Source: Bacteroidaceae bacterium (lineage in GTDB: Bacteria; Bacteroidota; Bacteroidia; Bacteroidales; Bacteroidaceae). Taken from it: DNA of 64,000 nt. Below, in pieces: positions 2,521-26,033 of this stretch (its first letter is position 1; each line of letters begins with the position of its first letter). Where the stretch lies: NCBI GenBank assembly GCA_045659645.1, contig JAZRCG010000010.1:57391-121390 (forward strand), in the 5' to 3' direction. A program made the position numbers and the translations under genes. Below the pieces are notes generated by a model. That model saw only the letters and a list, made by a program, of their open reading frames with translations. It was not told where the DNA came from and made no database searches.

Positions 2521-3099
2521 TTATTTTTCTCTTCCAAAGAGTTTAGAGAACTCCATTTCGAAGTTGGGGGTCAGTATGCCCTGGCCAATGGCGTCTTGAA
2601 TCTCCTGCAACGACCAGAAGCGCCCGCCGTCGGTCTCCTCGCTGGGAGTTATGTCCTTGTCGTAGACAATCTTGTAGGCATAGATGAGTTCGTGCTCGCG
2701 GTCGGAGTGGAACTCATACATCTGCATCAGTTCGCAACCCTCGGCATTGATGCCCAGTTCTTCGCGAGTCTCGCGCAGAAGGGCGGTGGGGATTTCCTCG
2801 CCGAAGTCCACATGGCCGCCCACGGCTGTGTCCCACTTGCCGGGTTGTATGTCCTTCCACATGGGGCGCTTCTGCAGGTAGAGTTCGCCCTTGCTGTTGA
2901 ACACATGCAGGTGCACTACGGGATGCAGGAGCATGGAACCATTGTGGCACTCGGTGCGTGTGGCCTTGCCGATGACATTGCCGGCAGGGTCAACGAGGGG
3001 GAGGATAGTTTCACCTTCAGCGGACCCACCCCCAACCCCTCCACAAGGGAGGGGAGTGGAATGTTCTGTATGGTGTGTATTATTTTGTTCGTTTGCCAT
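2521..3099 (-). CDS. NUDIX hydrolase
   Basis: 192 aa with the Nudix box GGHVDFGEEIPTALLRETREELGI. Roughly the first 27 codons are encoded by a repeat unit plus spacer (see repeat 3022-3157). Confidence 0.85.
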   Translation of the reverse strand: MANEQNNTHHTEHSTPLPCGGVGGGSAEGETILPLVDPAGNVIGKATRTECHNGSMLLHPVVHLHVFNSKGELYLQKRPMWKDIQPGKWDTAVGGHVDFGEEIPTALLRETREELGINAEGCELMQMYEFHSDREHELIYAYKIVYDKDITPSEETDGGRFWSLQEIQDAIGQGILTPNFEMEFSKLFGREK

Positions 3100-3157
3100 T
3101 TATTTTAGTCTTTAGTAACTACTCCCCTCCATTCAGGGAGGGGATGGGGGTGGGTCC
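3022..3157. repeat. Inverted pair of GC-rich hairpin modules (GGACCCACCCCC-AACCCCTCC-loop-GGAGGGGAGT)
   Basis: Unit at 3022-3059 and its reverse complement at 3121-3157. Each contains an internal CCCCTCC/GGAGGGG stem-loop. The pair brackets the queA stop and the NUDIX start. Confidence 0.85.
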
Positions 3158-4456
3158 AGTCAACAAACTGCTATCTCCATAGGAGAGGAAACGGAAGTCG
3201 TTCTCCAGGGCGTAGTCGTAGATGCTTCGCCAGTTGCCGTTTACGAAGGCGCTGACGAGGAGCAGGAGCGTGCTTTGGGGCTGGTGGAAGTTGGTTACCA
3301 TCATCTTGACGATGTGGAACTTGTAACCCGGCGCTATGATTATCTGTGTGGAGGAGTGCAGGATATCCAGCGCTCTCTCGTCCATGTATTTCAGCAGGGC
3401 TTGCAGAGCCTGGCTGGTGTCGGGCAGAGTCTCGGTGTGCTCGGCGTATGGCATCCATTGCTCCACATGGAGGTCTTCCTTGCCCTGCATGGCCAAAAGT
3501 CCCATGTAGTAGAGGCTCTCCAGGGTGCGCACGCTGGTGGTGCCAACGGCAATGGCAGAGCCTTCGTGTGCTATGAGCCTTTCTATGGTTGTGCGGTTCA
3601 CGGCAATGTGCTCGGTGTGCATGTCGTGGTCGCCGATCTCTTCGCTCTTCACAGGTTTGAAGGTGCCGGCACCAACATGCAGGGTAACCTCCTCGCGCTC
3701 AATTCCATGGCTGTCCAGTTCTGCCAGCACCTCGGGGGTGAAGTGCAGACCTGCCGTGGGGGCAGCCACACTGCCCTTTACCTTGGAGTAGACGGTCTGG
3801 TAGGTGGTGAGGTCGCTCTGCTCCGTCTTTCTGTTCAGGTAGGGAGGAATGGGCAGTTCGCCTGTTGCCTCGAGGATTTCTGCCCAAGTATGGTCAGTGT
3901 CCCAGGTGAAGTCTATCTGATGACTGGTGCCGTGTGTCTCGCCACGTGTGGCAGAGAGGGTAACGGTTTCCTCGCCAATCTGTATCTGCTGGTGCAGGGA
4001 ACCGGTCTTCCACTTCTTCAGGTTGCCCACCAGACAGTACCATGAGCATCTGCCTCTGCTGAGGAAGTTTTCCTGATACTCGGCAGGCAGGGCAGGCTCC
4101 AGAATGAATATCTCTATGAGTGCACCCAAGGACTTGCCGGAAGTGTCTCCCGAGGCGATGGCCATCGCATCGTGTTGCGATGGCTCTCGCGTCCCGATGC
4201 GTTGCCCCTCGGAACACGGAGCGGTGGACTTCCTGAAATGAAGCCTTGCCCTCACCACACGGGTGTTGTTGAAAATCATCAGCGCCCCCTTGGGCAGATA
4301 CTCGGGCAGATGGCAGAAAGTATCCTGGCTGATGTCTCCGTGACGGTACACAAGCAACTTGCTCTTGTCGCGCTGGGCAAGGGGGAATTTCGCTATACGC
4401 TCCTCCGGCAGAGGGTAATTATAGTCCTTGATTTGTATGTGCTTAGGCTCCATCAT
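3119..4456 (-). CDS. queA: S-adenosylmethionine:tRNA ribosyltransferase-isomerase
   Basis: 445 aa. Motifs FNNTRV, PPYL, YQTVY, AAPTAGLHFT, VGTTSVR(T)LES and VTNFHQPQSTLLLLVSAF match QueA. The protein is longer than canonical because of an internal insertion and a repeat-encoded C-terminus. Confidence 0.9.
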   Translation of the reverse strand: MMEPKHIQIKDYNYPLPEERIAKFPLAQRDKSKLLVYRHGDISQDTFCHLPEYLPKGALMIFNNTRVVRARLHFRKSTAPCSEGQRIGTREPSQHDAMAIASGDTSGKSLGALIEIFILEPALPAEYQENFLSRGRCSWYCLVGNLKKWKTGSLHQQIQIGEETVTLSATRGETHGTSHQIDFTWDTDHTWAEILEATGELPIPPYLNRKTEQSDLTTYQTVYSKVKGSVAAPTAGLHFTPEVLAELDSHGIEREEVTLHVGAGTFKPVKSEEIGDHDMHTEHIAVNRTTIERLIAHEGSAIAVGTTSVRTLESLYYMGLLAMQGKEDLHVEQWMPYAEHTETLPDTSQALQALLKYMDERALDILHSSTQIIIAPGYKFHIVKMMVTNFHQPQSTLLLLVSAFVNGNWRSIYDYALENDFRFLSYGDSSLLTGPTPIPSLNGGE

Positions 4457-4470
4457 ACTGAATTTGCGTG

Positions 4471-4478
4471 CAAAGGTA
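4471..4478 (-). promoter_or_regulatory. Bacteroidota -7 box (TACCTTTG) upstream of queA
   Basis: Minus strand reads GCGTACCTTTGCACG about 15 nt upstream of the queA ATG. It matches the TAnnTTTG consensus of Bacteroidetes sigma-A promoters. Confidence 0.55.
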
Positions 4479-4593
4479 CGCTTTTTTGACGACTAATCTG
4501 CCTAAGGCAAGGAAAAATACAACAATTTATACATATTGTATATATAAGGAAGTTAAAGTTTGTTTTTTGCTTTTGTAGTTACTATAAAATACA

Positions 4594-4601
4594 TACATTT
4601 G
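4594..4601 (+). promoter_or_regulatory. Bacteroidota -7 box (TACATTTG)
   Basis: TACATTTGCA lies 64 nt upstream of the 4665 ATG in an AT-rich leader. Confidence 0.5.
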
Positions 4602-4664
4602 CATAGCGTAACTGCGTATATCAAGTAAGAAACACTAATCAAATCTAATCTAAAAACCTAAATT

Positions 4665-7600
4665 ATGAGGAAATTTACACTATGTATGTTGGCCTGCTGC
4701 TCGGTGGCGGCAAGCCTGTATGCACAGGACGTTCCTGTTAATCGCGAGAAGTATCCCGATTACGTCGATCCACAGAAGGCATATCCTGCCGAACCTCGCC
4801 TGATGAAATTCGTTCCAGTAGAGGGCGAATCGCAGAGCAGAAAGGCAGCACTGGCAAAGGCTGCCAGCGAGTTGCCCGAGTATTGGAACAATGCCGACAC
4901 CAAGTACTTCCCCCCTGTGTTCAACCAGGATGGCGGTTCCTGTGGTAGTGCAAGCCGTATCGGTTACATGTTTACCCACGAGATCAATGCCTTGCGCGAC
5001 CGCGATGCCAGTTTGCCCGAGAACCAGTATCCCTCGCACTTCGTATGGCTGCTTACCAACGGTAACTCTGGCAAGGATGCTTTCGTGGAATACGTAGGTG
5101 TGCCTAATGTTGCAGTATATGGCGGCCGCACATACAGTTCTCTCTTTGGTTATCAGGAGGAGACATATAACAACTTCGGTTGGATGACCGGTTACGACAA
5201 GTGGATGAATGCCATAGGCAACCGTATGCTTCGCCCCACATCCAACCCATTGACTGTAGACACCGAGGAAGGTCGTCTGGCAGCCAAGGCATGGCTCTAC
5301 AACCATGCCGGCGACACCGACTTCAAGGCCGGTGGCCTTATCGGTCTTGGTGTGGCTTCTGGTGGTCAGTGGCACAACATACCTTCAACCCCTGCCAACG
5401 ATGCAGCTGGTGTTACCGGCAAGTATTTCGTCCATCGTTGGGGTACTCAGGTGGACCATGCCGTAACTATGGTTGGTTGGGACGACCGTATCGAGTTCGA
5501 CCTGGACGGCAATGGCATTGCCGGTGAGGTGGACAAGGATGAGAAGGGCGCCTGGATTATAGTAAACAGTTGGGGATATTGGTGCAACCAAGGTTTCATC
5601 TACTGCCCCTACAAGTATGCTGGTCCTGTGAGCGACCCTGAAACCGGTGCAATGAGGAGTGGCTATTGGAGCGGTGAGCTCTATCATGCCCGCAAGAACT
5701 TCCGTCCCACTCGCGTTATAAAGTTGAAGATGGATTATACCCATCGTAGCGAACTTCTCCTGCAGGTGGGCATCAGTTCTGATGTCAATGCTACAGAACC
5801 CGAGGCTGTAATGGACATGCACCACTTCCGCTACGCCGGTGATGGTGCCAATGGTGATGCCAACCCTGTACCTGCAACTCCCATGCTTGGTAACTGGAAT
5901 GGCAAGATGAACCATGCTCCCATGGAGTTCTGTTACGACCTGACTGATTTAAGCGCAAACTTTGATACCAATAAGCCCTTGAAGTACTTCTTCATCATCA
6001 ACAGAAAGAAGGACACCAGCAATGGTAGCGGTAACATCTACGAGGCAAGCATCATGGACATGGAGTATGACCAGGAAGGTATTGAGTCTCCATTCGATCT
6101 GGGTGGCGAGAAGTTCCAGATTACCACCAAGGGTAAGAAGACCATGATAACCTCCGTTGTATATGGCATGGGTTACCAGCCCGTCACCAACCTTGTCCTC
6201 AGCGATGGCACCCTTTCATGGAATGCTCCTGTAGCAAGCAGCTTCAAGGTGAATTCATATAATGTATATAAAGATGGTGTACTGTTGGGCAAAACCACCG
6301 ACAGAAGCATGACCGTGACCGAAGGCAAGGAGTATTCTGTTAGCGTTGTTTACGAGGGTGGTATAGAAAGTGCCAAGGTAACATGCAAGACAGCTATAGA
6401 ACAGAACGGCAAGGTGCTCAACTTTGACCGTGCTGGCTTTACCATCCCCAATGTCTTCGCCAATCATTACAACGAGTGCACAATCGAGTTCTTTATCAAA
6501 CCCACTGTTTTCCAGAATTGGAACTGTGCAGCAGGTCCTGGTTGGGGCACATACATGCACCACTTGGATGCAAGTGGCTATTTTACATGCGGTTGGAATA
6601 CCAATGCCCGTATGACCACAAATGCAACCCTTTCAAAGTCGGTAAGAAATCACATTGCCATCGTGGTTAAGGGCAACAGGATGTCTGTCTACAAGGATGG
6701 TACTGCCGTAGGTTCCTTCACAAGCACCTCGTACAGTGGTCTTGGTGGTTTCGGTGATCTGGTATTCCGTTCCGATAATGGCAACAATTCATGGCAGCAG
6801 GCCCAGTACGATGAGATTCGTATATGGAACTATGCACGTTCTGCCGAAGAGATAAAGGGTGGCTCATCGGCCAAGAAGGTAGAGTTCTTTGGTGAAGTTA
6901 TGCCCAAGGGCCTGCTCGTCTACTACAAGGGTGATACCTTTATGGGTGCAGATGGCAAGTACTACATGCGTGATTGCGTAGGCAACAACCATGCCACCGT
7001 ACAGGCTTCTGGCGACCCCAGCCAGGAGACAGGTCAGAAATCAAGCACTACTGGTTTGACTCCCACCTTGACACTTGACACTCCTCAGAACGTGTACGTT
7101 GGTGTGCCTGTTTCTCTTGAAGCAAATTACAACGACGCTATCAACAAGCTCACCTGGTCAGTGCCCTCTTGCAATATATCAGAGATGAACATCAAGTCTC
7201 CCACCGTTGTCTTCAGTCAGGCTGGCGAGCACAAGGTAACTGTAAAGGGTACTGCTTATGACGGCACCGAGCTTTTGGCAGAAATTACCATAGACGTGAA
7301 GGCTGCTCCCGAGTTGGATGCCTCATTCTCTATGAATACCGAGAGATTACCCATGGGCGAGCACTTGAGCGTATGGGCAAACACATATGTGGACGGATGC
7401 AGCTATGAGTGGCTTATGCCAGGAGCCGAAACAGAGAAGGCATACGGCGTCAAGGCCGGAGCTACCTATCAGGAAGGCGGCAAACACTATATTACGCTGA
7501 AGGTTACATCGGCAGACGGACGTAGCGTAGAGACAACTCAGGAGATAATTGTTACATCAATACCTCCTGTAGCCGACTTCCGCGTTTCCAACGCATTTGT

Positions 7601-8733: not shown

Positions 8734-9486
8734 TTACTTCAGCACCAGTCCCACGGGGCAATGGTCGCTGCCGAAGATGTCGGTGTGTATGCTTGCCTCT
8801 TCTATTCTTTCTTGCAGGCGGTTGGACGTGATGAAGTAGTCGATACGCCAGCCCGTGTTCTTTTCCCTTGCCTTGAAGCGGTAACTCCACCATGAGTAGA
8901 TATCCTTTTCGTCGGGATGCAGGAAACGGAAGGTGTCGGTAAAGCCAGTGTCAAGCAGTGTGGTCATCTTCTCGCGCTCCTCGTCGGTAAAGCCCGGGTT
9001 CATGCGGTTCGTCTTCGGGTTCTTCAGGTCTATCTCCTGGTGTGCCACGTTCAGGTCACCACAATATACGACGGGTTTCTTGGCGTCCAGCTGCATGAGG
9101 TAGGCACGAAGGTCCACTTCCCACTGCATACGGTAGTCCAGGCGCTTCAGTCCGTCCTGGGAGTTTGGCGTATAGCAGCATACAAGGTAGAAATCCTCCA
9201 TCTCCAAGGTGATAAGCCTGCCCTCGTGGTCGTGCTCCTCTATGCCCATGCCATATGATACGGACAGGGGGGTATGCCGTGTGAAGATAGCAGTTCCGCT
9301 GTACCCTTTCTTTTCGGCATAGTTCCAATAGGATTGATAACCGGGTATATCCAAGTCTATCTGCCCCTCCTGAAGTTTTGTTTCCTGAAGGCAGAAGAAG
9401 TCGGCATTCAGGGCATTGAAAGCCTCCAGGAAGTTCTTGCCGACAACGGCGCGCAGGCCGTTAACGTTCCAACTTATGAATTTCAT
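8734..9486 (-). CDS. xth: Exodeoxyribonuclease III (AP endonuclease)
   Basis: 250 aa. MKFISWNVNGLRA...FCLQETK...SDHCPV is the EEP-fold Xth signature. Confidence 0.9.
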   Translation of the reverse strand: MKFISWNVNGLRAVVGKNFLEAFNALNADFFCLQETKLQEGQIDLDIPGYQSYWNYAEKKGYSGTAIFTRHTPLSVSYGMGIEEHDHEGRLITLEMEDFYLVCCYTPNSQDGLKRLDYRMQWEVDLRAYLMQLDAKKPVVYCGDLNVAHQEIDLKNPKTNRMNPGFTDEEREKMTTLLDTGFTDTFRFLHPDEKDIYSWWSYRFKAREKNTGWRIDYFITSNRLQERIEEASIHTDIFGSDHCPVGLVLK

Positions 9487-15752: not shown

Positions 15753-15904
15753 GAGGGGAGGCGGATTAGCGGTGAGGTTTTTCGTTTTGTTTTATTCATC
15801 CCCTCCGCTTCGCTTGTCCCGCCTATCTTAGAGGGACAAAGGGAGCGGAACACTGAAATTTGAAAATGGAAAAATGAAACCGCTCATCCGCTCCATGCTC
15901 ACCG
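15753..15904. repeat. Composite intergenic repeat (GCGGATNAGCGGTGAG arms plus an ATCC/ATCAxCCCCTCC...GTCCC...GGGACAAAG module)
   Basis: The core 15794-15843 resembles 31223-31278 and 25843-25900, and 31047-31098 in reverse. The flanking GCGGTGAG-type words recur at 31021-31042. Confidence 0.6.
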
Positions 15905-15919: not shown

Positions 15920-17236
15920 TCATCTCGTCTTTCTCAGGTAGTCGGCACGTTTGACCATGTATGTGGCTTGTGCCTGTGCCAGGCGGTTTAGACTTTCTCT
16001 AAGGAGGGTCTCGCTTTCCAACAGGTCGGAAAGGATTTCAGTACCGGAGCGGTATTTGTCCATGGACATGCGCATGTTTTCGGTGGCTTCTGCCACACTG
16101 GTGCGGGCGATGTCTATCTGCTTGTAGGCCTCCACGAGCGAGGACCAGGAGGACTCTATGTCGATGATGAGCTGCTCGCGGGCATCCTGCAACTGGTTCT
16201 GCGACTGCTGGAGGGCAAGTTTCTCGCGACGTATGGCATGCGAGCCTCCCCACCACGAGGTGATGGGCACGCTGACGGTGCCGAAGACCATGCCGTTGGT
16301 GGTGTTGGTCTCCATCATGGACTTTGCCCCTTCGGAGAGTCCGCCAAGGCCCACGTTGCTGATGGTAAGCCCCACAGCCACGGTGGGCAGATGCTTGCCA
16401 CTCTCCATGCGCACCTTCAGCTTGCCTGCTTCCACGCCCTTCTGTGCCAAGGCAAGTTCCTGGCGGGCGGCCACGGCCTCGTCGGGTGCGATGTAGTAGT
16501 TCAAGGGACTTTCTATGTCGGCGAGCGCCATGTCCTGCACATCTATCTTCTCGCCAGCCATGCCCGTCTGCTGTGCCAGGAGCAGGCACATGACGTGGTG
16601 CGCATTGCTGACGGTGAGGCTGTCGGAGGAGAGGCGCTGGAGTTCCAGGCGCACACGAAGCAGGTCGTTGCGAGTCGTCACCCCTGCATCCACATAGGAC
16701 TGCACCTCGCGATAGATGGCATGCAGCTGTTCCTGAGCCGAGTGTATGGTGGCAAGGTTGAGTTTCAGTTTCACTATCTGGTAGTAGTTCTCGGTCACCT
16801 TCTGCAGGAGGTCCTTTGTCTGTAGCTCTGCCTGTAGTTCCGCCACCTGCTTGCCAATGTCGGCCAGTCGGTTGCCGTTCACTATCTGCCCGCCGGCAAA
16901 TAGCGGTTGCGTGAGTGTACCCATCACGGCATAGGCCTCATCCAACTCGCGCACGGAGAAGGGCTGTCCTGCCAATGCAGCCAGTTGTGGGTTAATCTGC
17001 CCTAATGCCATCAGTTCCTGAGGATAGTATCCGTCAGCCTTTAGCATCTTGTCGAAGGCATGGAAAGCCAGCAGGTTGGCAGAGATTTCGGGGAAGTACT
17101 TGGTGAAGGCCTCCCTTTTCTGCTCGCCAGCCATCTGTATCTGCAGGGTGGCATTCAGCAGGGTGCGGTTCTGTGTGGCAGCACTTTGCAGGCACTCCTG
17201 AAGGGAAACGGTGCGAGGCTGAGCCTGCATGGCCAT
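15920..17236 (-). CDS. TolC-family outer-membrane efflux protein (start uncertain)
   Basis: The C-terminal ~439 aa of the 1505-aa track ORF is TolC-like, with alpha-helical coiled repeats and LLNA...L...A motifs. The first ATG is at 17236 (MAMQAQP). The hydrophobic stretch LFFCCMAMQA just upstream looks like the remnant of a signal peptide that is interrupted by a repeat unit. Confidence 0.75.
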   Translation of the reverse strand: MAMQAQPRTVSLQECLQSAATQNRTLLNATLQIQMAGEQKREAFTKYFPEISANLLAFHAFDKMLKADGYYPQELMALGQINPQLAALAGQPFSVRELDEAYAVMGTLTQPLFAGGQIVNGNRLADIGKQVAELQAELQTKDLLQKVTENYYQIVKLKLNLATIHSAQEQLHAIYREVQSYVDAGVTTRNDLLRVRLELQRLSSDSLTVSNAHHVMCLLLAQQTGMAGEKIDVQDMALADIESPLNYYIAPDEAVAARQELALAQKGVEAGKLKVRMESGKHLPTVAVGLTISNVGLGGLSEGAKSMMETNTTNGMVFGTVSVPITSWWGGSHAIRREKLALQQSQNQLQDAREQLIIDIESSWSSLVEAYKQIDIARTSVAEATENMRMSMDKYRSGTEILSDLLESETLLRESLNRLAQAQATYMVKRADYLRKTR

Positions 17237-17250
17237 GCAGCAGAAGAAAA

Positions 17251-17362
17251 GACCCACCCCCAAACCCCTCCCTCTATGGAGGGGAGTAGAATGTACTGCT
17301 GATGGGGCTCCGAGTCGGTTGTTACCACTCCCCTCCCTTGTGGAGGGGCTGGGGGAGGGTCC
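17251..17362. repeat. Inverted pair of GC-rich hairpin modules at the RND|TolC junction
   Basis: 17251-17288 (GACCCACCCCCAAACCCCTCCCTCTATGGAGGGGAGTAG) and 17327-17362 (its reverse complement). The spacer begins AATGTACTG, like the 3060 spacer (AATGTTCTG). Confidence 0.85.
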
Positions 17363-17370
17363 GCTGGATC

Positions 17371-20300
17371 CTTTCTCGTACAGCTTCCAGTACACCACTG
17401 GCAGTACCGTGGTGACGAGCAGGAGCATGCCTATGCCGCCGGCAAAGATGGTTATGCCCACTGGCATCCAGAAACTGCTGCCAGCCAGTATCATGGGCAC
17501 TACGCCCACGGCCGTGGTGGCGGTGGTGAGGAAGATGGGCACCATGCGGCGCTTGCCGGCATCCAGGGCAGCCTCCCTGGCCGACATGCCCTCGGACATC
17601 TTCTCGTTGGCATGCTCGAAGATGAGTATCTCGTTGCGCATAATCATGCCCATGAGGGTGATGAAGCCGAACATGCCCGTGAGGCCCAGCACCTTGTTGG
17701 CAATGAGCAGGCCTATGATGGCACCCGGCATGCCCAGGCTGATGGCCACGATGCACACGATGGCTATGGAGAACTTGCGGAAGTTGAACAGCAGGAAGAA
17801 GAATATAACCACCACAGACATGCCTATGCCGGCCATGATGTCGGGGGTGATGTCGTTGTTATGCTCCGTCTCGCCTCCCACCTCGGCACGCACTCCCTGA
17901 GGCAGGTTCATGTGGCTGATGTGGTCGATAATGCGGTTCTGTATGTCCAGGGCGAAGGTGCCACGCTTGCCCTCGGCGGTGACCGAGATGCAGCGCTCGC
18001 CATTGCGGTGCACTATCTTGGTGTGCCCCCATCGGGGATAAACGTCTGCCACCTGGCGCAAGGGCACGGAAGCCCCCATGGGAGTACTCAGGTAGGTGTC
18101 CCCCACGTCGCCGACCGTAAGAGATTCGGTGGCACGGTCCTTAAGCACCAGAGGCACTTCGTAGGTACGGCTCTTGCCGTCCACGCTGCCCGATTCCCAT
18201 ATGGACCCTATCTGTGTCTTGCCCGTCTGGAGCATGAGCTGCAGTTCTGCCGAGGTGCGGCTTATGCCCAGTTGGCTAGATGCCACGGGATCCAGGCATA
18301 CCTCCACTAAGGGCGACGGGCGGTCGTAGTCGGTATGCACCCACTCCAGTTCCGGGAAGGTGCGCATTTCCTGTATGAGCATGTCGGCGGTCCTTTGTAT
18401 GGAATCTATGTTGTTGCCATAGAAACGGTATTCATAGGTGGGCACGGGCAGGTAGTCCATCTGTTTCCAGCGCACGTAGGCATTGGGCCAGTGGTTGGAG
18501 TATTTCGGTGCCAGCTGGTCGAGAAGTTCCAGCGAAGCCTCGTTGCTCTCGGTGTTCACTATGAGCTGGGCAAAGTTCTTGCCGGCAATCACAGGAGCAT
18601 AGGTGGTATGGAAGCGAGGCGAAGAACATCCCACGAAACTCGTCACACCGGTCACCTTCTCGTTGGCATTCAGTATTGCGTTCAATTCGTCAGCTATCTT
18701 CTTGGTCTCCTCCAGGCCACTGCCCTCGGGCAGGTATATCTCCACGGCAAACTGGTTGCGGTCGGCAAAGGGGAACTGGCGCATCTTGAGCAAGGGGAAC
18801 AAGGCACCTGTGGCAACGACCAGCACTATGCTGCCCACGATGGTGAGCCAGGGGTGGCGGAAGTTCCACTCCAGAGTCTTGTCGTACCAGTGCTGCACCC
18901 AGTCGGTTATGTCACGCTTGCCAGGCTTCTTTTCCTTCACCCGGCGTATGATGGCAGCATTGAGCAGAGGGATGATGACGGCCGCCACAACGAGCGAAAC
19001 CATCAGGTTGATGGTGATGGTCAGGGGGAAGAGGCGGAGAACATCCGCAGCCTCGCCCTTGATGGTGATGAGCAGGGGATAGAAGATGGCACAGATGCAC
19101 ACCGTGGCCAGAAGCATGGGCCAGAAATACTGCTGCACGCTCTTCACCGCCGCCTCGCGACGGCCCATACCCTTGCCCAGGTACTCGAGATAGCCGTCGA
19201 TGACCACAATGCTGTTGTCCACTATCATGCCCAGCACCACTATGAGGCAGGCCAGGGTGATGATGTTCAGTTCTATGCCCAAGGCATACATTATGCCCGT
19301 GCTGACGAAGGTGGACAGGGGTATGGTGAGAGCCGCCACGATGGCACTCTTCAGGGGGAAGAGCACTATCATCACCGCCACGATGATGAGCATGGAGATG
19401 ATGAGGTCGCGCAGGAAGTCGCTCACGCTGGTACCCACCACCTGGGGCTGGTCGGTGATGCGGCGCATGTGCACATCGTCGGGCAGGCATTCATGGCGGA
19501 ACTGGTTCAGTATCTCGTCCACATCCTCGCCGAACATGACTATGTTGTTGCCCTTCAGCATTTCCAGGGACAGGATTACGCAACGCTTGCCGTTTGACTC
19601 AATGTAGCTGTCGCTCAGGTCATATTCCCTCTGCACGGTGGCAATGTCACGCACGCGCACAGTCTTGCCGTCAGGAGTGGCAAGGATGATGCGGTCGCCT
19701 ATCTCCTGTTCGGAATTGACGCTGGGCGCCACGTGTATGTTCAGATTCTGCTTGGGAGTTGACACCATGCCGCTCATTGTGGTGAGGCCCTGGCTTGTCA
19801 GCGCCTGTATCAGTGCCGTTTGGCCTATGCCATAGGCAGCCAGACGCTCTCTGTCCACGCAGATGGTCAGCTGTTCCTTCTTCTCGCCCAGCTGCTGCAC
19901 CTTGCTCACGCTGGGCAGGCGGCGCAGGCGGTCGGCCAGCTCGTCGCTATAGCCCTGCAGTTCCCGATAGGAGCGCTGGTCGCTCTCCACGGTGATGAGC
20001 AAGGCGCTGGTGTCGCCAAAGTCGTCCTGGGCCACCAGTGCCAGCACACCCTGAGGCAGGGAGGACTTGAACTGGTTCAATCCATGCTTCATCTTGCTCC
20101 ACACGGGGGTGAGGTTGTTCTGGTCCTGCTGGAACTGCACCATCACTATGCACATGCCGTTCTGGCTGGTGGAGTAGGTCTTGCTGCGGTCCACCTCCTT
20201 GTAGGTGAAGATGTAGCGCTCCAGAGGCCGTGCCACCTGCTCTTCTATCTCCTCGGCCGTGGCCCCAGGCATTACGGCAATCACCACACCCTGGCGTATG

Positions 20301-20437
20301 GTGAAGGGCGGAAACTCGTCCTTGGGCATCACATATATCGCCCACAGGCCAAAGGCCAGAAGCAGTGCCGTGAGAAAGGCCGTTATCTTATAGTTGTTGA
20401 TAGGCCATGCTATCCAACTGCTGTTCTTGAAAGTCAT
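17371..20437 (-). CDS. RND efflux permease (AcrB/HAE1-like); 3' boundary undefined because no in-frame stop precedes the TolC gene
   Basis: About 1020 aa with the typical AcrB N-terminus (ITAFLTALLLAFGLWAIYVMPKDEFPPF) and 12-TM architecture. The native sequence appears to end near ...VVYWKLYEK. The reading frame then runs through the repeat pair (GSSGPSPSPSTREGSG...) into the TolC gene. Confidence 0.8.
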
Positions 20438-20444
20438 AATGATA

Positions 20445-20658
20445 GGACCCCTCCCCGTACCCTCCCCTGTATGGGAGGGAGTATATACTACAGGGGAATG
20501 AATGGGGTGGACCCTCCCCCTTGCCCCTCCACAAGGGAGGGGAGTATATACTACAGGGGAATAGAGGGATTATTTTTGATGTTAATAATAAATTAGGTTA
20601 GTATGATAGTCAGTTGTACCTACCCCCTCCCATACAGGGGAGGGCTGGGGAGGGGTCC
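20445..20658. repeat. Cluster of three GC-rich hairpin modules (two direct, one inverted) filling the MFP|RND intergenic gap
   Basis: Units at 20445-20500 and 20509-20565 are both extended by GTATATACTACAGGGGAAT. A third unit at 20621-20658 is inverted. The cluster starts 8 nt from the RND ATG and ends 2 nt from the MFP stop. Confidence 0.85.
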
Positions 20659-20659
20659 G

Positions 20660-21691
20660 TCACTCCACCTCTGTTCCCTCGCTCACCTTCTGGTAGCCGT
20701 TTGTTATCACACGGTCGTCCTTGTCAAGGCCGGAGAGTACCTCTATGCGGTTGCCTAGGGTCTTGCCCATGGTGATGACTTTTCTGTGCGCCTTGCCGCC
20801 TTTCACCACCCACACGAAGTGCTTGCCGTCGGCAGATTGCTGTATGCTGCGCACGGGAAGGGTCATGCCATGGATGCTGTCATTGGTATGCAGATACACC
20901 TTTGCCACCATGCCGGGCAGGATGTCGCCCTCGGGGTTGGGCAGGGCAATGCGTATGTCGTAGGTATGTGTCAGCGCATCTGCCACCACACCTTTCTCTA
21001 TTGCACCGCCCTCCAGGGGCTTGTCTCCGATGGCCTCAATGCTGATGCTCGATGTAGTGCCGGACTTGATGGAGGAAATCTCCTTCTCGGGGATGCTGAC
21101 CTTCACCTTCAGGGTCTTGATGTCCAGGATGGTAAGCACTGGCTGGCTGGGCAGGGCGGTTTCTCCTGCACTAACCCACTTCTTGCCCACCACACCGTCT
21201 ATGGGAGCGTATATGCTGCAATCCTCCAGCATCTTCCTGGCGGCAGAGAGAGAGGCCTCGGCCTGTTCCACCTTGCTCTGCACCTCCACCCACTTCATGT
21301 CGGCCAAGGATTTGTTCTCGTGCAACTGGCGCATGCGCTCCAGGGCATCGGTGGCCTGCTTGTGCGACGCTTCTGCCATGGCCAGGGTGTTCTGTGCCTG
21401 GGTCTTGTCCATCTCGGCAACGAGCTGACCCTTGCGCACGCGCTGCCCCTCGCCAACGCATATCTGCTTCACCATGCCCATGCCGGTGAAACTCACCGCC
21501 ACGGAGGTTGACTCCTCCACCATGCCCACATAGGCGGTACCTGTCTCCCGAGGCTGGGCGGCAACGCTTTCGGTTGTCACCTTCAGTGGAGCGGTGCCAT
21601 GCTGCACCTTCTCTTGCGAGCATGCCACTAGGCAAACTGCCATCAGCATCATTTGCCATAGGTGTAACGCCTTCATTGTCTTCTTTTTCAT
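20660..21691 (-). CDS. RND efflux periplasmic adaptor (membrane fusion protein), lipoprotein
   Basis: 343 aa with lipoprotein signal ...AVCLVAC|S, a biotinyl-like hairpin and coiled-coil segment, and its position upstream of the RND permease. Confidence 0.85.
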   Translation of the reverse strand: MKKKTMKALHLWQMMLMAVCLVACSQEKVQHGTAPLKVTTESVAAQPRETGTAYVGMVEESTSVAVSFTGMGMVKQICVGEGQRVRKGQLVAEMDKTQAQNTLAMAEASHKQATDALERMRQLHENKSLADMKWVEVQSKVEQAEASLSAARKMLEDCSIYAPIDGVVGKKWVSAGETALPSQPVLTILDIKTLKVKVSIPEKEISSIKSGTTSSISIEAIGDKPLEGGAIEKGVVADALTHTYDIRIALPNPEGDILPGMVAKVYLHTNDSIHGMTLPVRSIQQSADGKHFVWVVKGGKAHRKVITMGKTLGNRIEVLSGLDKDDRVITNGYQKVSEGTEVE

Positions 21692-21722
21692 ATGTTCGTG
21701 ATACTGTTTTGTTTTTCGGGTG

Positions 21723-21868: not shown

Positions 21869-21876
21869 TACCTTTG
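21869..21876 (+). promoter_or_regulatory. Bacteroidota -7 box (TACCTTTG) for xseA
   Basis: AACGTACCTTTGTATTC lies 34 nt upstream of the 21910 ATG and is divergent from the efflux promoter. Confidence 0.55.
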
Positions 21877-21909
21877 TATTCACTACCCTGGTATAAAACC
21901 TAACAACTT

Positions 21910-23157
21910 ATGCAGGCACTATCTCTCTTCGAACTCAATGCCATGGTGCGCTCCTTCATCGAGGGGTGTGCCGAGGATGCCTATTGGGTGCATGGCGAAC
22001 TGCTGGAAGGCCGTGCCGGATATGGCGGGCATTTCTATGGCGAACTGGTGGAGAAGGACGCACACACCGGTGCCATAGTGGCAAAGGCACGCATAACCAT
22101 CTGGGCACGTACATATAATATATTGGCGTTGCGTTTCCGAGAGGAGACGGGGCAGAGTCTTCGTTCAGGGTTGAAAGTGCTCATGCAGGTACGCCTCACC
22201 TTCAGCGAACTCTACGGCTATGCCCTCAATGTTCTGGACATAGACGGCACCTACACACTGGGCGACATGGCACGCCGCCGACAGGAGATATTGAACCAGC
22301 TGGAGAAGGACGGTATCATCAACGACAACAAGGACCTGCCTATGCCCGCCTTGCTCAAGCGCATTGCCGTGGTGTCCAGTGCCACAGCGGCAGGTTATGG
22401 CGACTTCTGCCGTCAGTTGCTGGAGAACGAGTGGGGGCTGGCATTCCGCGTGCAGCTCTTTCCTGCCGTAATGCAGGGGCAGCATGTGCCAGAGAGCATC
22501 TCTGCCGCACTGATGCAGATAGCCGACGAGGCCGACCGATGGGATGCTGTGGTGATAATTCGTGGAGGCGGTGCCACGAGCGACCTTTCCGACTACGACT
22601 CCTATGAACTGGCTGCCTGTATAGCCCAGCATCCTCTGCCTATTATAATAGGTGTGGGTCACGACCGCGACGAGACGGTGCTCGACCATGTGGCGCATAC
22701 CTCCGTCAAGACCCCCACGGCAGCTGCTGCCTTCATCCTGGAGCATCAGTTGGAGCAGCTTTCTCGCCTTCAGGACCTGCAACAACGTATTCCTCTTACC
22801 GCCTCCAGCAAGATGCAGCGCGAGGAGCAACGACTGGCTCTCCTCCGTCAGCGCCTTCCCTCGGTGGTGACGCTGCGTTTGCAAAGGGAGCATCAGCGTC
22901 TCGAACGCTCATCGCTACTCCTGCCCATCTCTGCCACTCGTGTGCTGACCCAGGAGAAGCACCACCTGGAACTCCTTTCCCAACGCCTCGAAAGCCTCAA
23001 TCCCGAACTGCTCCTCCGCCGTGGATACTCCATCACCATGCTCAATGGCAAGATAGTGACCGACATCTCGGACATCCCTCCAGGTTCCCAAATAGAAACC
23101 CGCCTGCAAGGCGGCACCGTGCTCTCACAGGTGGTGGGAGTGGAAACGGAAAACTGA
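21910..23157 (+). CDS. xseA: Exodeoxyribonuclease VII large subunit
   Basis: 415 aa: an N-terminal OB-fold (LSLFELNAMVRSFIE...WVHGEL), the catalytic region (RGGGATSDL) and a C-terminal coiled coil. Confidence 0.9.
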   Translation: MQALSLFELNAMVRSFIEGCAEDAYWVHGELLEGRAGYGGHFYGELVEKDAHTGAIVAKARITIWARTYNILALRFREETGQSLRSGLKVLMQVRLTFSELYGYALNVLDIDGTYTLGDMARRRQEILNQLEKDGIINDNKDLPMPALLKRIAVVSSATAAGYGDFCRQLLENEWGLAFRVQLFPAVMQGQHVPESISAALMQIADEADRWDAVVIIRGGGATSDLSDYDSYELAACIAQHPLPIIIGVGHDRDETVLDHVAHTSVKTPTAAAAFILEHQLEQLSRLQDLQQRIPLTASSKMQREEQRLALLRQRLPSVVTLRLQREHQRLERSSLLLPISATRVLTQEKHHLELLSQRLESLNPELLLRRGYSITMLNGKIVTDISDIPPGSQIETRLQGGTVLSQVVGVETEN

Positions 23158-23159
23158 CC

Positions 23160-23275
23160 AGACCCTCCCCCTCACCCCTCCACAATGGGCGAACAAGGTC
23201 TTTAGAAGATGGACTGATGTCCATCTGTGCCTTGTGAGGGGAGCACTCCCCAGTGCGACGCGCGGACGGAGTGGT
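23160..23275 (+). repeat. Long variant of the GC-rich element (left arm GACCCTCCCCC plus a structured core)
   Basis: The core GGTCTTTAGAAGATGGACTGATGTCCATCTGTGCCTTGTGAGGGGAGCACTCCCCAGTGCGACGCGCGGAC is shared with 23352-23466 and 25885-25975. Confidence 0.75.
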
Positions 23276-23351
23276 TACAACCGACTATTGAATATTAACT
23301 TTTAACAAATCTGTTAACCCTTTAACAAAATCCCTAACTCCCAGTACTATA

Positions 23352-23466
23352 TACTCCCCTCCCTTATGGCGAATGGAGTCCTTGGAGGATTGACTGAATG
23401 TCAATCTGTGCTCCATGAGGGGAGCAATATCCATTGCGACGCGAGGACCGGGCTGGGGGTGGGTCC
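23352..23466 (+). repeat. Long variant of the GC-rich element (core plus right arm GGGGGTGGGTCC)
   Basis: The core is in the same orientation as 23160-23275, but this copy carries the opposite terminal arm. Together the outer ends read GACCC.../...GGGTCC. Confidence 0.75.
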
Positions 23467-23499
23467 GCTAGGTCCGCCGGTACGGGGAGGGGTCTTTAT

Positions 23500-23688
23500 A
23501 TGAAATACGAAGAAGCCATTGCCAAGCTCGAACAGATAGCACGTCAGCTTGAGCAGAACCAGTTGCCCATCGACCAGATTGCCGCTCAATTGCGCGAGGC
23601 GCAGGAGCTGGTGAAGTTTTGCCGCGAACAGCTCACCTCGGTGGACGAGGAAATAAAGAAGATAGTGGGAGAGGAAACGCCAGAGTGA
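23500..23688 (+). CDS. xseB: Exodeoxyribonuclease VII small subunit
   Basis: 62 aa, MKYEEAIAKLEQIARQLEQNQLPIDQ..., the typical XseB helical hairpin. The 22 extra N-terminal codons of the track ORF are repeat-derived. Confidence 0.85.
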   Translation: MKYEEAIAKLEQIARQLEQNQLPIDQIAAQLREAQELVKFCREQLTSVDEEIKKIVGEETPE

Positions 23689-23751
23689 CAAAAATCCACC
23701 AGTTTTCCTAAATTTCCCATACGTTTGTATTGACTTTATGGGAGAATTGTG

Positions 23752-23759
23752 TAATTTTG
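23752..23759 (+). promoter_or_regulatory. Bacteroidota -7 box (TAATTTTG) for ilvE
   Basis: GTGTAATTTTGTGAAC lies 22 nt upstream of the 23781 ATG. Confidence 0.5.
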
Positions 23760-23780
23760 TGAACAAAACCTCAAAGAACT

Positions 23781-24803
23781 ATGAACGAAATAGATTGGAG
23801 TAGCCTTTCCTTTGGCTACATGAAAACGGATTACAACGTGCGTTGCTACTATCGCAACGGCGCTTGGGGCGAGATAGAGAACTGCAGCGAGGAGACCATA
23901 CCCATGCACATGGCAGCCACTTGTCTGCACTATGGTCAGGAGGCTTTCGAGGGTCTGAAGGCATACCGTTGTCCCGATGGCAAGGTGCGTGTGTTCCGCT
24001 CTGACGAGAATGCTGCCCGTCTGCAGAGCACATGCCGTGGCATACTGATGCCCGAACTGCCCACGGAGAAGTTCAACGAGATGGTGGACCGTGTGGTGCG
24101 CCTCAACGAGCGCTTCATCCCTCCCTACGAGAGCGGTGCCAGCCTCTACATCCGTCCCCTCATGATAGGTACCAGCGCTCAGGTGGGCGTGCATCCTTCC
24201 GAGGAATACCTGTTCCTGATCTTCGTAACCCCCGTAGGTCCTTACTTCAAGGGCGGTTTCTCCACCAATCCCTATGTTATCATTCGTGAGTTTGACCGCT
24301 CTGCACCCCTGGGCACCGGTGTCTACAAGGTGGGTGGCAACTATGCCGCTTCCCTGCGTGCCAATAAGATGGCGCACGACCTGGGCTACTCCTGCGAGTT
24401 CTATCTTGATGCCAAGGAGAAGAAGTACATCGACGAGTGCGGTGCCGCCAACTTCTTCGGTATCAAGGACAATACCTACGTTACCCCCAAGTCTACTAGC
24501 ATCCTGCCCTCCATCACCAACAAGAGCCTGATGCAACTGGCACAGGACCTTGGCCTCAATGTTGAGCGTCGCCCCATCCCAGTGGAGGAACTCTCCACCT
24601 TCGAGGAGGCAGGTGCATGCGGCACGGCAGCCGTCATTTCGCCCATACAGCGCATCGACGACCTGGAGAACGAGGTCAGCTATGTCATCTCCAAGGATGG
24701 CAAGCCCGGTCCCGTTTCCACCCAGCTCTACAACAAGCTCCGTGGCATCCAGTATGGCACCGAACCCGACATCCACGGATGGACACGTGTAGTAATAGAA
24801 TAA
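23781..24803 (+). CDS. ilvE: Branched-chain amino acid aminotransferase (class IV)
   Basis: 340 aa. YGQEAFEGLKAY, the GNYAASL region with PLP-Lys context YKVGGNY, and GTAAVI match IlvE type II. Confidence 0.9.
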   Translation: MNEIDWSSLSFGYMKTDYNVRCYYRNGAWGEIENCSEETIPMHMAATCLHYGQEAFEGLKAYRCPDGKVRVFRSDENAARLQSTCRGILMPELPTEKFNEMVDRVVRLNERFIPPYESGASLYIRPLMIGTSAQVGVHPSEEYLFLIFVTPVGPYFKGGFSTNPYVIIREFDRSAPLGTGVYKVGGNYAASLRANKMAHDLGYSCEFYLDAKEKKYIDECGAANFFGIKDNTYVTPKSTSILPSITNKSLMQLAQDLGLNVERRPIPVEELSTFEEAGACGTAAVISPIQRIDDLENEVSYVISKDGKPGPVSTQLYNKLRGIQYGTEPDIHGWTRVVIE

Positions 24804-24828
24804 GGAGAAGAAAAACACGATATGTATC

Positions 24829-24857
24829 AAAGGCGTTGCGTAAAGTGACGCCTTTTT
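24829..24857 (+). terminator. Probable ilvE terminator
   Basis: AGGCGT-11 nt-ACGCCT followed by TTTTT. The stem is short, so confidence is moderate. Confidence 0.55.
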
Positions 24858-25050
24858 AACGTTTATCGTTTAACGTTTAACGTTTAACGTTTGTCGTTTA
24901 TCGTTGTGCGGTGTGCCGTTGTGACGGTAGGGACGCTGCGTGCAGCGTCCGCAAAAGAATAGGGTGGGGTGATTCGGGCGCAGCACGCTGCGTCCCTACT
25001 TTCACTGATTGCTTTCAACTTTCAACGTTAATCGTTAATCGTTAATCGTC
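24858..25050. repeat. Mosaic: AACGTTT-type heptamer array / GTAGGGACGC...GCGTCCCTAC inverted-repeat element / TCAAC-TTAATCG array
   Basis: Heptamer array 24858-24905, TIR element 24927-24999, second array 25012-25050. The second array supplies the TAA stop of the amidase gene on the minus strand. The same three-part mosaic recurs at 26222-26362 and 37505-37637. Confidence 0.8.
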
Positions 25051-25458
25051 TCTACCCCCATATTCTGCCTTGGCGTCGAAGCAGGGGCAGGGCTTGTAGC
25101 GGTTCAGGTCGTGGTGTCCAAGCACCAGGGCACGGGGGTAGCGCTGTTTCAGTTCTTCAAGCAGTTTCTTCAGGGTCTGTTTCTGGGCATCGGTTCGCGT
25201 GTCGGCAGGATGTCCCTGTGCATCCAGGCCGCCCTCGTAGCATACCCCTATGGAATGCTTGTTGTGCTCGCGGCAGTGTGCACCGGCAATGCTCTCGGGA
25301 CGTCCCTTCTCTATCGTGCCGTCCCGTCGCACCACATAGTGGTAGCCTATACCGTTCCATCCCAGTTTTCTGTGCCAGGCATCTATCTGCTTGGCGGACG
25401 AGCGTTGCCCGGGTCTTATGCCCGAGCAATGCAAGATGATAAGTGATATTGTTCTCAT
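25042..25458 (-). CDS. N-acetylmuramoyl-L-alanine amidase (Amidase_2 / AmpD-PGRP fold)
   Basis: 138 aa: ILHCSG...AWHRKLGWNGIGYHYVV...GAHCREHNKHSIGVCYEGG, with Zn-ligand His/Cys contexts. Confidence 0.85.
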   Translation of the reverse strand: MRTISLIILHCSGIRPGQRSSAKQIDAWHRKLGWNGIGYHYVVRRDGTIEKGRPESIAGAHCREHNKHSIGVCYEGGLDAQGHPADTRTDAQKQTLKKLLEELKQRYPRALVLGHHDLNRYKPCPCFDAKAEYGGRDD

Positions 25459-25496
25459 TCCAGTCAGTCTTGTGTGTGGATGTGCTTGCGTGCACT

Positions 25497-25595
25497 TTAC
25501 ATGCAGGAGGTCATGCCAAAGGTGGTGGCAATGGCGGTAAGTACAGTGATTACGATGTTGATTACTTTACTCCAGATGTTGTTCTTGTTGTTCAT
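25497..25595 (-). CDS. Tiny single-TM peptide (32 aa), resembles the Bacteroidales 'smalltalk protein' family
   Basis: MNNKNNIWSKVINIVITVLTAIATTFGMTSCM ends 38 nt upstream of the amidase ATG. The track ORF 25497-25742 extends the N-terminus through a repeat. Family name is recalled from RefSeq annotations and has not been verified. Confidence 0.6.
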   Translation of the reverse strand: MNNKNNIWSKVINIVITVLTAIATTFGMTSCM

Positions 25596-25629
25596 TGTTA
25601 TTAGTTTTTTAGTGTGTGTTAAATTTAGG

Positions 25630-25794
25630 GCGACTACTCCAGCGGCAGCGCTGTTTGCTCTGTCCCTCTGCGTCCTTTGCGTCCTTTGCGTCCTTTGCGT
25701 CCTTTGCGTGAGATAAATGATAAGGACGTTTTTGTTTTGCACGCGGAGAGCGCAAAGAGCGCAGAGAATTATTGCCTTTCGTGTTTCTCGCTTG
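25630..25794 (+). repeat. ~150-bp direct repeat, copy 1 (contains a GCGTCCTTT x4 array and a CTCTGCG..CGCAGAG hairpin)
   Basis: Near-identical to 26076-26222 apart from the number of 9-mer units. The internal inverted repeat is CTCTGCGTCCTTTGCG / CGCAAAGAGCGCAGAG. Confidence 0.85.
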
Positions 25795-25842
25795 CGCTGG
25801 AGAGGTCGCGAACTTCGTTACGACAAGAGTGCGCAGAGATTT

Positions 25843-26033
25843 TATCCACCCCCCTCCCCCCTTGCGGGGTACTCGCCCCTGTCTCAGGGGGCGAAGAGGG
25901 TCTTTAGAAGAAGCTGTAAATCTGCTTCTGTACCCTCTGAGGGTCGCACTCCCTCAGTGCGACCCTGGGCAGGGTGATAGCGTTAGCTGTTGTAACTACT
26001 CCCTCCCCTTGTGGGAGGGTTGGGGAGGGGTCC
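25843..26033. repeat. Composite GC-rich element (ATCCACCCCCCTCC module, long structured core, terminal hairpin module)
   Basis: 25885-25975 is homologous to the cores at 23160-23275 and 23352-23466. 25996-26033 (ACTACTCCCTCCCCTTGTGGGAGGGTTGGGGAGGGGTCC) is a hairpin module in minus orientation. Confidence 0.75.

Follow-up and report, generated by a model that had tools for sequence, protein, structure and literature searches.

Genes and repeats of the window

The window analysed here is a 64,000-nt stretch of DNA from a Bacteroidaceae bacterium (assembly GCA_045659645.1, contig JAZRCG010000010.1, positions 57,391–121,390, forward strand), and its subject is a short GC-rich module that recurs in and around a set of genes identified by Pfam as queA, NUDIX, HlyD/MFP, ACR_tran/RND, OEP/TolC, XseA and XseB. 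These identities agree with an initial annotation, which had also described a dispersed GC-rich hairpin module; each module that it named was found again, in place or a few bases away. With its C-rich strand on the plus strand, the module reads GGACCC(N)CCCCC-N3-CCCCTCC-loop-GGAGGGGAGT, and it also occurs as the reverse complement. The dispersal is real: CCCTCC-N4–8-GGAGGG matches eight times in the window, against 0.04 matches expected from dinucleotide shuffles, and an nhmmer profile made from related copies finds nine modules, all between 3 and 26 kb. We think that the modules are probably repeats of BoxC layout and triplex type that have expanded in one clade as unstable, selfish-like DNA, together with a second-tier mobile core.

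Comparison loci were fetched from related or motif-bearing genomes and are labelled with L-numbers; the related set comprises about 1.6 Mb of loci that cover parts of metagenome-assembled genomes (MAGs). With the RND protein of the window as query we obtained 62 loci, all from uncultured Bacteroidaceae or Prevotellaceae MAGs of ruminant, horse and similar guts, the best match being 92% identical and none being identical. Modules are limited to relatives at 87–92% RND identity; they are lacking from one relative at 87% and from every relative that is more distant. The copies and composites in the window, with the open reading frame (ORF) that one of them joins, are the following.

3022–3057, plus strand: module, C-rich strand on plus, GGACCCACCCCC-AAC-CCCTCC-loop-GGAGGGGAGT; inside the 5′ coding end of the Nudix gene; profile match
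3121–3157, minus strand: module, G-rich strand on plus; encodes the last 12 codons of queA (GPTPIPSLNGGE)
3018–3158, no strand: inverted module pair with the Nudix ATG (3097–3099) in the AT-rich spacer between them; site empty in L126
15920–20437, minus strand: fused ORF of 1505 codons comprising RND (ACR_tran), linker GPSPSPSTREGSGNNRLGAPSAVHSTPLHRGRGLGVG, a signal-peptide remnant and OEP/TolC
17245–17368, no strand: compact composite of about 120 nt, with modules at 17251–17288 (plus) and 17327–17362 (minus) and a conserved 38-nt spacer
20441–20663, no strand: composite of tandem plus-strand modules (20445–20482 and 20509–20545), an AT-rich spacer and a minus-strand module (20621–20658)
23160–23466, no strand: composite of a plus-strand module split by core A, a spacer (23278–23345) and a minus-strand module split by core B
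23190–23267, plus strand: core A, subtype a, after GGG in the G-arm of the plus-strand module; 98 bits, E = 4.6e-24
23370–23448, plus strand: core B, subtype b, after GG in the G-arm of the minus-strand module; 98.9 bits, E = 2.6e-24
25844–25891, plus strand: second type of C-rich hairpin, ATCCACCCCCCTCCCCCC-TTGC-GGGG..CGCCCCTGTCTCAGGGG; hosts core C
25892–25971, plus strand: core C, divergent, with compensatory changes in every helix; 75.9 bits, E = 3.5e-18
25996–26033, minus strand: module of subtype CCCTCCCC; right end of the composite that starts at 25844

The composite at 20441–20663 occupies the entire gap between the MFP stop codon (20660–20662) and the RND ATG (20437), and that at 23160–23466, whose spacer is of a conserved AT-rich kind ('type 2'), nearly fills the gap from the xseA stop codon (23155–23157) to the xseB ATG (23500). 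The composite at 25844–26033 sits between two minus-strand genes, in a gap of 935 nt filled with repeats, and its hairpin block (25844–25891) has a reverse-complement copy at 31040–31097. It is also flanked by two copies, 446 nt apart, of a block of about 165 nt made of CTTTGCGTC 9-mers and a hairpin (25630–25794 and 26076–26222), with a third, inverted copy 5 kb off at 31097–31195.

The module has the layout of an intrastrand triplex motif

On its G-rich strand, the module begins its layout with a C-arm, to which a G-arm is complementary, and ends it with a G block that is a mirror repeat, in the order CCCCTCC, a loop of about 5 nt, GGAGGGG, 3 nt and GGGG(A/T)GGG-TCC. The arms are Watson–Crick complements, CCCCTCC with GGAGGGG or CCCTCCC with GGGAGGG, across loops of 4–6 nt. 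The mirror block follows the G-arm after about 3 nt. Among 374 distinct modules parsed by regular expression, the odd base of this third block moves with the T of the C-arm: the concordant combinations (b,c) = (5,4) and (4,3) account for 211 and 98 modules, and the discordant (5,3) and (4,4) for 8 and 4, in what are essentially two subfamilies and thus few independent events. The odd base is A in 281 modules, T in 92 and C in one, with an expression that is unable to count G at this place; A and T give the allowed triads. By these counts the mirror symmetry of the module covaries and obeys the mirror-repeat rule of purine-motif triplexes.

The repeat units are about 55 nt long and are often joined as inverted pairs of 120–215 nt with conserved inner tails and spacers. 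The inverted pairing described in the initial annotation is borne out by folding, in which module pairs close end to end as whole units at about −69 kcal/mol (z = −5.6 to −6.3). A minimal element in L121 (1649–1696) joins two long arms directly, without spacer, in a perfect 22-bp hairpin, GACCCTCCCCCTGACCCCTCC-CTGTAT-GGAGGGGTCAGGGGGAGGGTC.

Elements of this kind from Escherichia coli and other bacteria formerly went by the names BoxC and PIT (Hoyne et al. 2000). They are now described as G/C-rich intrastrand triplex motifs with the consensus CCCTCNCCC-N3–6-GGGNGAGGG-N3-GGGNGAGGG (Holder et al. 2015, PMC4666352). In Escherichia coli the motif (TM_ECO) is intergenic, shows no strand bias, occurs as inverted pairs at 5 of 18 sites and arrests polymerase in vitro, and for TM_ECO alone triplex folding of the isolated strand has been shown by circular dichroism, nuclear magnetic resonance and UV melting (PMC4666352). 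The modules described here share with BoxC/PIT/TM_ECO the C-arm, 3–6-nt loop, G-arm, 3-nt loop and mirror G block with A or T opposite the A–T pair, and likewise the many dispersed copies, the frequent inverted pairs, the lack of strand bias and loci that are hypervariable among close relatives, where partial deletions leave hairpins. Their arms, however, are 7–8 nt (CCCCTCC/GGAGGGG) rather than the 9 nt of CCCTCNCCC/GGGNGAGGG; because the layout is the same and the TM_ECO consensus is not matched, they form a different family of the same kind. They further differ in an outer extension (GGAYCYAGC-GGACCC), in conserved inner tails and spacers, in being translated at gene ends and in frame within genes, in hosting a nested 79-nt element and in their host, a member of the Bacteroidota where the known hosts are Proteobacteria and Cyanobacteria. 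Judged by its layout, the module is a new, lineage-specific version of the BoxC/PIT/TM_ECO repeats. It is new in its sequence family and in the phylum of its host, and further in having conserved tails and spacers, in overlapping coding sequence and in carrying a nested element. The initial annotation knew of no description of the family. This holds for the exact sequence family, which a literature search did not find, but not for its kind.

Relation to other repeat families

Short GC-rich palindromes whose inverted doublets fold as long hairpins, lineage-restricted and mostly vertical in descent, also recall the repetitive extragenic palindromes (REPs) of the REP/BIME/REPIN–RAYT systems, and a GTAG often stands beside the hairpin (..GGAGGGGAGTAG..). 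In REPs, by definition, the palindrome has a GTAG tetranucleotide at its 5′ end (PMC3733652). In the modules, by contrast, the strand on which GTAG is read has it on the 3′ side of the hairpin, and many copies have GTGG or GTAT in its place; the 1.6 Mb of related loci showed no RAYT-like gene, and REPs have no third, mirror block. Translated palindromic repeats that lie in frame within genes or over their 3′ ends are known as the palindromic elements (RPE) of Rickettsia and as the QMITEs of Coxiella, of which QMITE2 is likewise a preferred target of another element, IS1111 (PMC5896051). The present modules are unrelated to these in sequence and lack a CGTC tag. They moreover contribute start regions to genes, one copy joins two tripartite efflux pump genes into one, and the element nested in them is itself tiny and non-coding.

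Units of 112–307 nt with inverted ends of about 38 nt resemble MITEs, miniature transposable elements with inverted repeats and a size of 50–800 bp. Like Correia/NEMIS of Neisseria and ERIC of enterobacteria, which are of 100–200 nt, they have inverted ends, lie in transcribed gaps and can give their neighbours regulatory or coding signals; unlike them, they show no TA or other target duplication, and their ends are triplex motifs.

Modules are translated at gene ends and within genes

The initial annotation had pointed to recurring peptides in ORFs of the window, and these are indeed encoded by the modules. At the queA/Nudix locus, the Pfam match of QueA ends at residue 432 of 445, and queA runs 12 codons into the module at 3121–3157, where the AGTAG tail supplies its stop codon (CTA at 3119–3121, TAG on the coding strand). 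The Nudix ATG lies between the two modules, and reading continues through the module at 3022–3057 as HSTPLPCGGVGGGS, so that the protein bears the leader peptide MANEQNNTHHTEHSTPLPCGGVGGGS. Nudix forms with a leader of this type occur in public protein sets, with one cluster of 195 members, whereas more distant Nudix relatives are plain 166-residue proteins that start M..DN.QELLPLVD without the leader. In L126 the unit is missing and queA and Nudix form one continuous ORF. An ancestral QueA–Nudix fusion split by the element was considered and rejected, since the distant relatives stand alone at 166 aa; as the ancestral Nudix protein was a stand-alone one, the single ORF of L126 is more likely a secondary in-frame deletion.

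Other loci show the same behaviour. Units lie in frame inside conserved coding domains of related loci, as RPEs do: in two species an SF1 helicase has one in its AAA_12 domain (L220/L192), and another lies inside Peptidase_M16_C (L231), each domain being interrupted by about 57–70 extra residues that the unit encodes. Leaders of the form M..H.TPLPCGGVGGGS.. begin a 2-isopropylmalate-synthase-like protein, an NAD(P)H-hydrate dehydratase and several FtsX-type permeases.

Two further features of these proteins are recorded here. QueA carries about 34 extra residues (APCSEGQRIGTREPSQHDAMAIASGDTSGKS) encoded on the minus strand at about 4120–4215 by a strongly palindromic stretch (−50 kcal/mol), which had no second copy in the related loci examined and may be an old in-frame insertion. 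Four Nudix relatives (P0004, P0005, P0007 and P0022) contain internal tandem duplications of 25–45 residues of the Nudix fold, which are either real or assembly artefacts.

Modules show no preference for operon junctions

The modules had been described as sitting almost exclusively at junctions between genes of one operon. As a family property this fails. The related loci hold 290 modules, which with the cores form 210 clusters; by longest-ORF gene calls, 69 intergenic clusters lie between co-directional, 24 between divergent and 21 between convergent genes, and the corresponding figures for all gene gaps of the same loci are 399, 136 and 140. The co-directional share is therefore close to that of the background (69/114, 60.5%, versus 399/675, 59.1%), and there is no preference for co-directional junctions. 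In the window all five loci do lie between co-directional genes, an outcome expected about 8% of the time at a background of 60%, and three of the five are not simply intergenic. Units do lie in the MFP/RND and xseA/xseB gaps, but the queA stop codon lies within a module, another module is translated as the Nudix leader, and the supposed RND/TolC junction, although its genes were named correctly, is a unit inside an uninterrupted 1505-codon ORF.

These data bear on the proposal, drawn in the initial annotation from placement at cistron boundaries, that the modules act as RNA structures. In the manner of REP or Correia elements, they would then stabilise upstream mRNA, provide RNase III/E sites or tune downstream translation. 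The data do not support the proposal, and we regard it as unlikely. Whole units are very stable as RNA (−69 kcal/mol, z about −6), copies do lie within transcripts, and the five window loci fit. However, divergent and convergent junctions have copies too, other copies are read in frame within protein domains, and one and the same junction carries quite different units, or other types of repeat, across sister species; the nested core, moreover, is about as often antisense as sense to co-directional genes (see below). A hairpin leaves the mirror third block unexplained, and purine-motif triplexes form in DNA but not in RNA (PMC4666352). In E. coli, PIT elements have neither promoter nor terminator activity (PMC4666352, citing Hoyne & Maher 2002).

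Copies are gained and lost between sister species

The comparison of orthologous junctions with which the initial annotation meant to check its reading as a non-autonomous family showed the presence/absence polymorphism, but no target-site duplication. Orthologous junctions differ between species at 87–92% RND identity, and mapping of flanks in the related loci yielded pairs of filled and empty sites. L266/L238 is a clean pair without target duplication, and the 'empty' sites of L123 and L205 retain 7–11 nt of the element end. The MFP/RND gap contains different units, or instead a repeat of AAACGGA arrays, depending on the species. Module copies have been gained, lost, partly deleted, rebuilt and exchanged between sister species, and the view of a dispersed, REP/MITE-like non-autonomous family that is polymorphic between close relatives is upheld.

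Mis-assembly or mis-binning of metagenomes as the source of both the GC-rich repeats and the RND–TolC fusion described below is hardly credible. All related sequences come from MAGs and some copies lie at contig ends, but at least nine independent assemblies, from different animals and studies, show the same junction structures, each with the substitutions and indels of its species.

Beyond this clade, the module pattern is found in MAGs of other Bacteroidaceae, three Helicobacter, Oscillospiraceae, Planctomycetota, Rickettsiales and Chloroflexi, and unrelated phyla thus have nearly this motif as well, in the form GACCC[A/T]CCCCC-N3-CCCC(C)TCC-loop-GGAGGGG; the module and core patterns are absent from IMG/VR viral contigs. 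In Helicobacter sp. MAGs (L289, L295, L332, L334, L326, L350 and L354), a near-identical motif, GACCCACCCCCTGCCCCCTCCGCAAGGGAGGGGG, adjoins a second repeat, ..CTCGCTCGCAATGA. In most cases no more than 250 nt separate it from one end of the fetched locus, which for some is also an end of the contig, as expected for a high-copy repeat.

The recurrence in unrelated phyla would suit modules that are useful DNA structures, kept by selection as sites for nucleoid, gyrase or recombination proteins or as programmed hot spots of variation, and so would the maintained mirror symmetry and the hypervariability of the loci. The same hypervariability is seen in E. coli, where TM loci vary strongly between strains and palindromic pairs suffer partial deletions (PMC4666352). 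Usefulness to the host is compatible with the expansion of a selfish-like repeat, but we hold it to be doubtful: the closest element-free relatives (L128–L134) do without units at the same junctions, copies disrupt gene ends, no conserved position relative to genes was found, and in E. coli BoxC/PIT has not been assigned a function either (PMC4666352).

A 79-nt core is nested in the modules

Long variants of the module had been noted to share a structured core, and a covariance model confirms this, finding exactly three copies in the window (cores A–C), all on the plus strand irrespective of the orientation of the host module. In a scan of genome contigs, a 15-base core pattern was too unspecific, with 120 of 120 matches attributable to chance. 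The pattern TGAGGGGAGCA-N4-C-N3-TGCGACGCG, by contrast, gave exactly 100 stretches in species-representative genomes, all of them in about 15 related MAGs. From the 107 distinct contexts of the pattern scan, 54 distinct cores were aligned without trouble. They support three helices, namely a stem of 7 bp, a second of 8 bp that stands above an 8/2 internal loop, and a 3′ hairpin of 5 bp: 97% of the cells are paired, 13 of 24 pairs change on both sides, and none of 500 shuffles matches this. The conserved unpaired stretches are GGCGAA, YTTWGAR, CTGTG, TGAGGGGAGCA and TGCGACGCG. Mismatches are G·T in 68 cases and A·C in 3, which places the selection for this fold on one strand.

All 105 left flanks of the core end in GG. 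Hosts are the G-rich strand of the module (65), its C-rich strand (26) and other hairpins or other cores (13); where cores nest in cores, they do so at GTGAGGGG^AGCA. A third level of nesting is seen in the apical loop of three core subtypes, where a 33-nt segment (GAAACAACGTTCGACGCCCGAAGGGGCTKAAGTCAAT) with a GCCC-GAA-GGGC hairpin of its own is inserted (L193, about 5740–5800; L209, about 4700–4760; L221, about 3930–3990); L264 has it on the minus strand, some 80 nt upstream of the match to the core at offset 927. At co-directional junctions, 22 cores are sense and 21 antisense, which shows no transcription bias, and cores lie in frame inside ORFs in both orientations. Relative to the sign of GC skew of the locus, 37 cores have the same and 50 the opposite strand, by a proxy that is weak on 8-kb MAG pieces.

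Several insertion sequences (ISs) target hairpins: IS1397 and ISKpn1 enter the loops of REP/PU sequences, IS621 and IS1111 (IS110 family) enter REP-like hairpins, and the PATEs belong to IS200/IS605. Like such elements, the core occupies one fixed place in a repeated hairpin and lacks terminal inverted repeats. As in IS200/IS605-type elements, it has a fixed short target, sub-terminal hairpins conserved on one strand and no evident target duplication. Unlike them, it is only 79 nt long, has no coding capacity and, by the weak GC-skew proxy, showed no orientation bias; its two hairpins are dissimilar, where the ends of IS608 are alike. A bridge-RNA/IS110 reading with a duplicated core dinucleotide was dropped on account of the flanks, as was a K-turn in the internal loop. 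Hammerhead, twister, pistol, hatchet and HDV-like ribozymes were also dropped, as their conserved cores do not fit.

The compensatory changes in three helices, the conserved unpaired stretches and the strong G·U over A·C asymmetry, with all three window copies sense to local genes, would also be expected of a functional RNA riding in the repeats, whether a small ribozyme, a riboregulator or a protein-binding RNA. This seems improbable to us. The even orientation at co-directional genes and the copies in frame within ORFs in both directions speak against it, as does the restriction to one clade, and the self-nesting and the 33-nt insert in the apical loop are typical behaviour of mobile DNA. 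Rfam has no family matching module or core, and nothing credible appeared over 23100–26100 even at E ≤ 10. The core is less likely to be a new structured RNA than an element that homes as single-stranded DNA.

An RND–TolC reading frame is kept open

The composite at 17245–17368 lies in frame and free of stops within the minus-strand ORF 15920–20437. This ORF has no stop codon after the RND transporter and no ATG before the core of the TolC signal peptide; the composite has replaced the start and the n-region, while the h- and c-regions remain (LFFCCMAMQAQ). Element-free relatives have at this place a stop codon, 60–100 nt, ATGAAA and a normal signal peptide. In nine of nine complete loci (the window and eight relatives), a unit replaces stop, gap and start, and the RND–TolC frame is open. 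The linkers of the eight loci in which they could be measured are 166, 247, 166, 193, 211, 247, 250 and 196 nt long, all 1 mod 3, and they are stop-free in the RND frame, while the other frames carry stops in most loci. These lengths imply at least five separate indel events:

Gain of a core by the left module
Gain of a core by the right module
Left half replaced by an AAACGGA array
18-nt duplication
Different unit in L135

The chance of keeping the frame through such histories is about (1/3)^5, from which we infer selection for read-through from RND into TolC. In AcrB-type pumps the C terminus of RND is cytoplasmic. A working product is topologically allowed given this C terminus, the Arg supplied by the linker and the resemblance of LFFCCMAMQAQ to native h- and c-regions. 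TolC would then be made by read-through from RND, with the Arg-rich stretch encoded by the element as n-region, and signal peptidase may free it by cutting behind the ..QAQ site that has been kept. Searching proteins with the RND–linker–TolC junction peptide returned three fragments only, and exact look-ups of the whole RND–TolC ORF and of the MFP protein gave no record.

Inverted arrays of the AAACGGA heptamer around TCCGAGT-rich spacers fill the MFP/RND and RND/TolC junctions of L123, L125, L135 and L128 (about 5830–6000 and 9070–9160 in locus coordinates), in frame between RND and TolC in L123/L125. In the window, such arrays occur at 15850–15882, 30452–30484, 30980–31012, 31192–31224 and 34856–34888.

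Other repeats and RNA in the window

The sole Rfam match of the window at gathering score is a full-length bacterial class A RNase P RNA (62419–62832, plus strand, 221 bits), with two large insertions relative to the model. Tandem arrays of a 10-nt repeat (TAGGAAGCCC and variants) occupy three gaps (32319–32463, 33124–33228 and 46734–46847), and a 9-nt array (CTCTAAGGT), also palindromic, lies at 36804–36902. Arrays of 7 nt (AACGTTT/AATCGTT; 24830–24917, 26284–26371 and 37484–37557) stand beside a conserved long hairpin (GTAGGGACGCTGCGTGCAGCGTCCG...; 24921–25005, 26257–26285 and 37612–37641). Array and hairpin make up a further dispersed element family, with a 124-nt inverted pair of copies at 26229–26352 and 37491–37614.

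Origin and meaning of the modules

The expansion of a selfish-like repeat that we favour would run as follows. A triplex motif would have expanded in one clade of uncultured Bacteroidaceae from ruminant, horse and human guts, its copies landing in or beside gene ends and persisting where they are harmless. The module sequence has no stops in several frames, and it can supply genes with stop codons, linkers or N-terminal extensions. The 79-nt core would be a second-tier non-autonomous element that inserts after GG in G-arms on either strand, and also into the second hairpin type and other cores, by way of a single-stranded DNA intermediate of recombination or transposition acted on by an enzyme encoded elsewhere, and not as RNA. 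Core subtype correlates with host context and loops differ between filled and empty sites; much of the core spread may therefore be copying of whole module-plus-core units.

Several points weigh against this account. Filled and empty sites of related loci show no target-site duplication, and no transposase or recombinase was found: a scan of the 1.6 Mb of partial genomes for HUH/Y1 motifs was empty, no ORF in these parts of genomes carried a RAYT-like pair of HUH and Y(I/V)xxNP motifs, and no parent IS with matching ends was noticed in them. Three of four filled/empty pairs of the core also differ in the loop, which gene conversion fits as well as transposition, and the exact core ends cannot be fixed because 2–3 nt of the target were lost or changed. 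The GC-skew proxy for replication direction is weak on 8-kb loci, every relative is a MAG, and the context statistics rest on crude longest-ORF gene calls. Even for TM_ECO of E. coli, footprinting does not support a triplex in vivo (PMC4666352). Finally, the conserved RND–TolC frame means that this copy is under selection, so that 'harmless passenger' is not valid for every copy.

A bolder joint proposal is tentative, and possible rather than likely: that the core is a new miniature element, defined by structure, that homes as single-stranded DNA to the G-arms of triplex hairpins through a separate recombinase, and that RND–TolC is a natural translated fusion of RND and outer-membrane factor, cut at the signal-peptidase site and kept by selection through at least five frame-preserving indels. 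What goes beyond the ordinary for repeats of this kind is the structure-conserved 79-nt core aimed at the G-arm, the frequent translation of the repeats and the frame-conserved RND–TolC joint.

For the annotation of gut Bacteroidaceae MAGs, the units produce false or extended ORFs, odd N termini, such as that of the Nudix form with 195 members, and apparent fusions. If RND–TolC is truly made as one chain, this would bear on how tripartite efflux pumps are assembled. In the thirty years for which BoxC and triplex-motif repeats have been known, neither a function nor a way of spreading has been assigned to them. This clade has hundreds of copies, clear cases in which sister species have gained or lost them, conserved composite units and, in addition, an element by which the G-arm is recognised. 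It is thus a natural experiment in which it can be tested how triplex repeats move and what reads the triplex motif.

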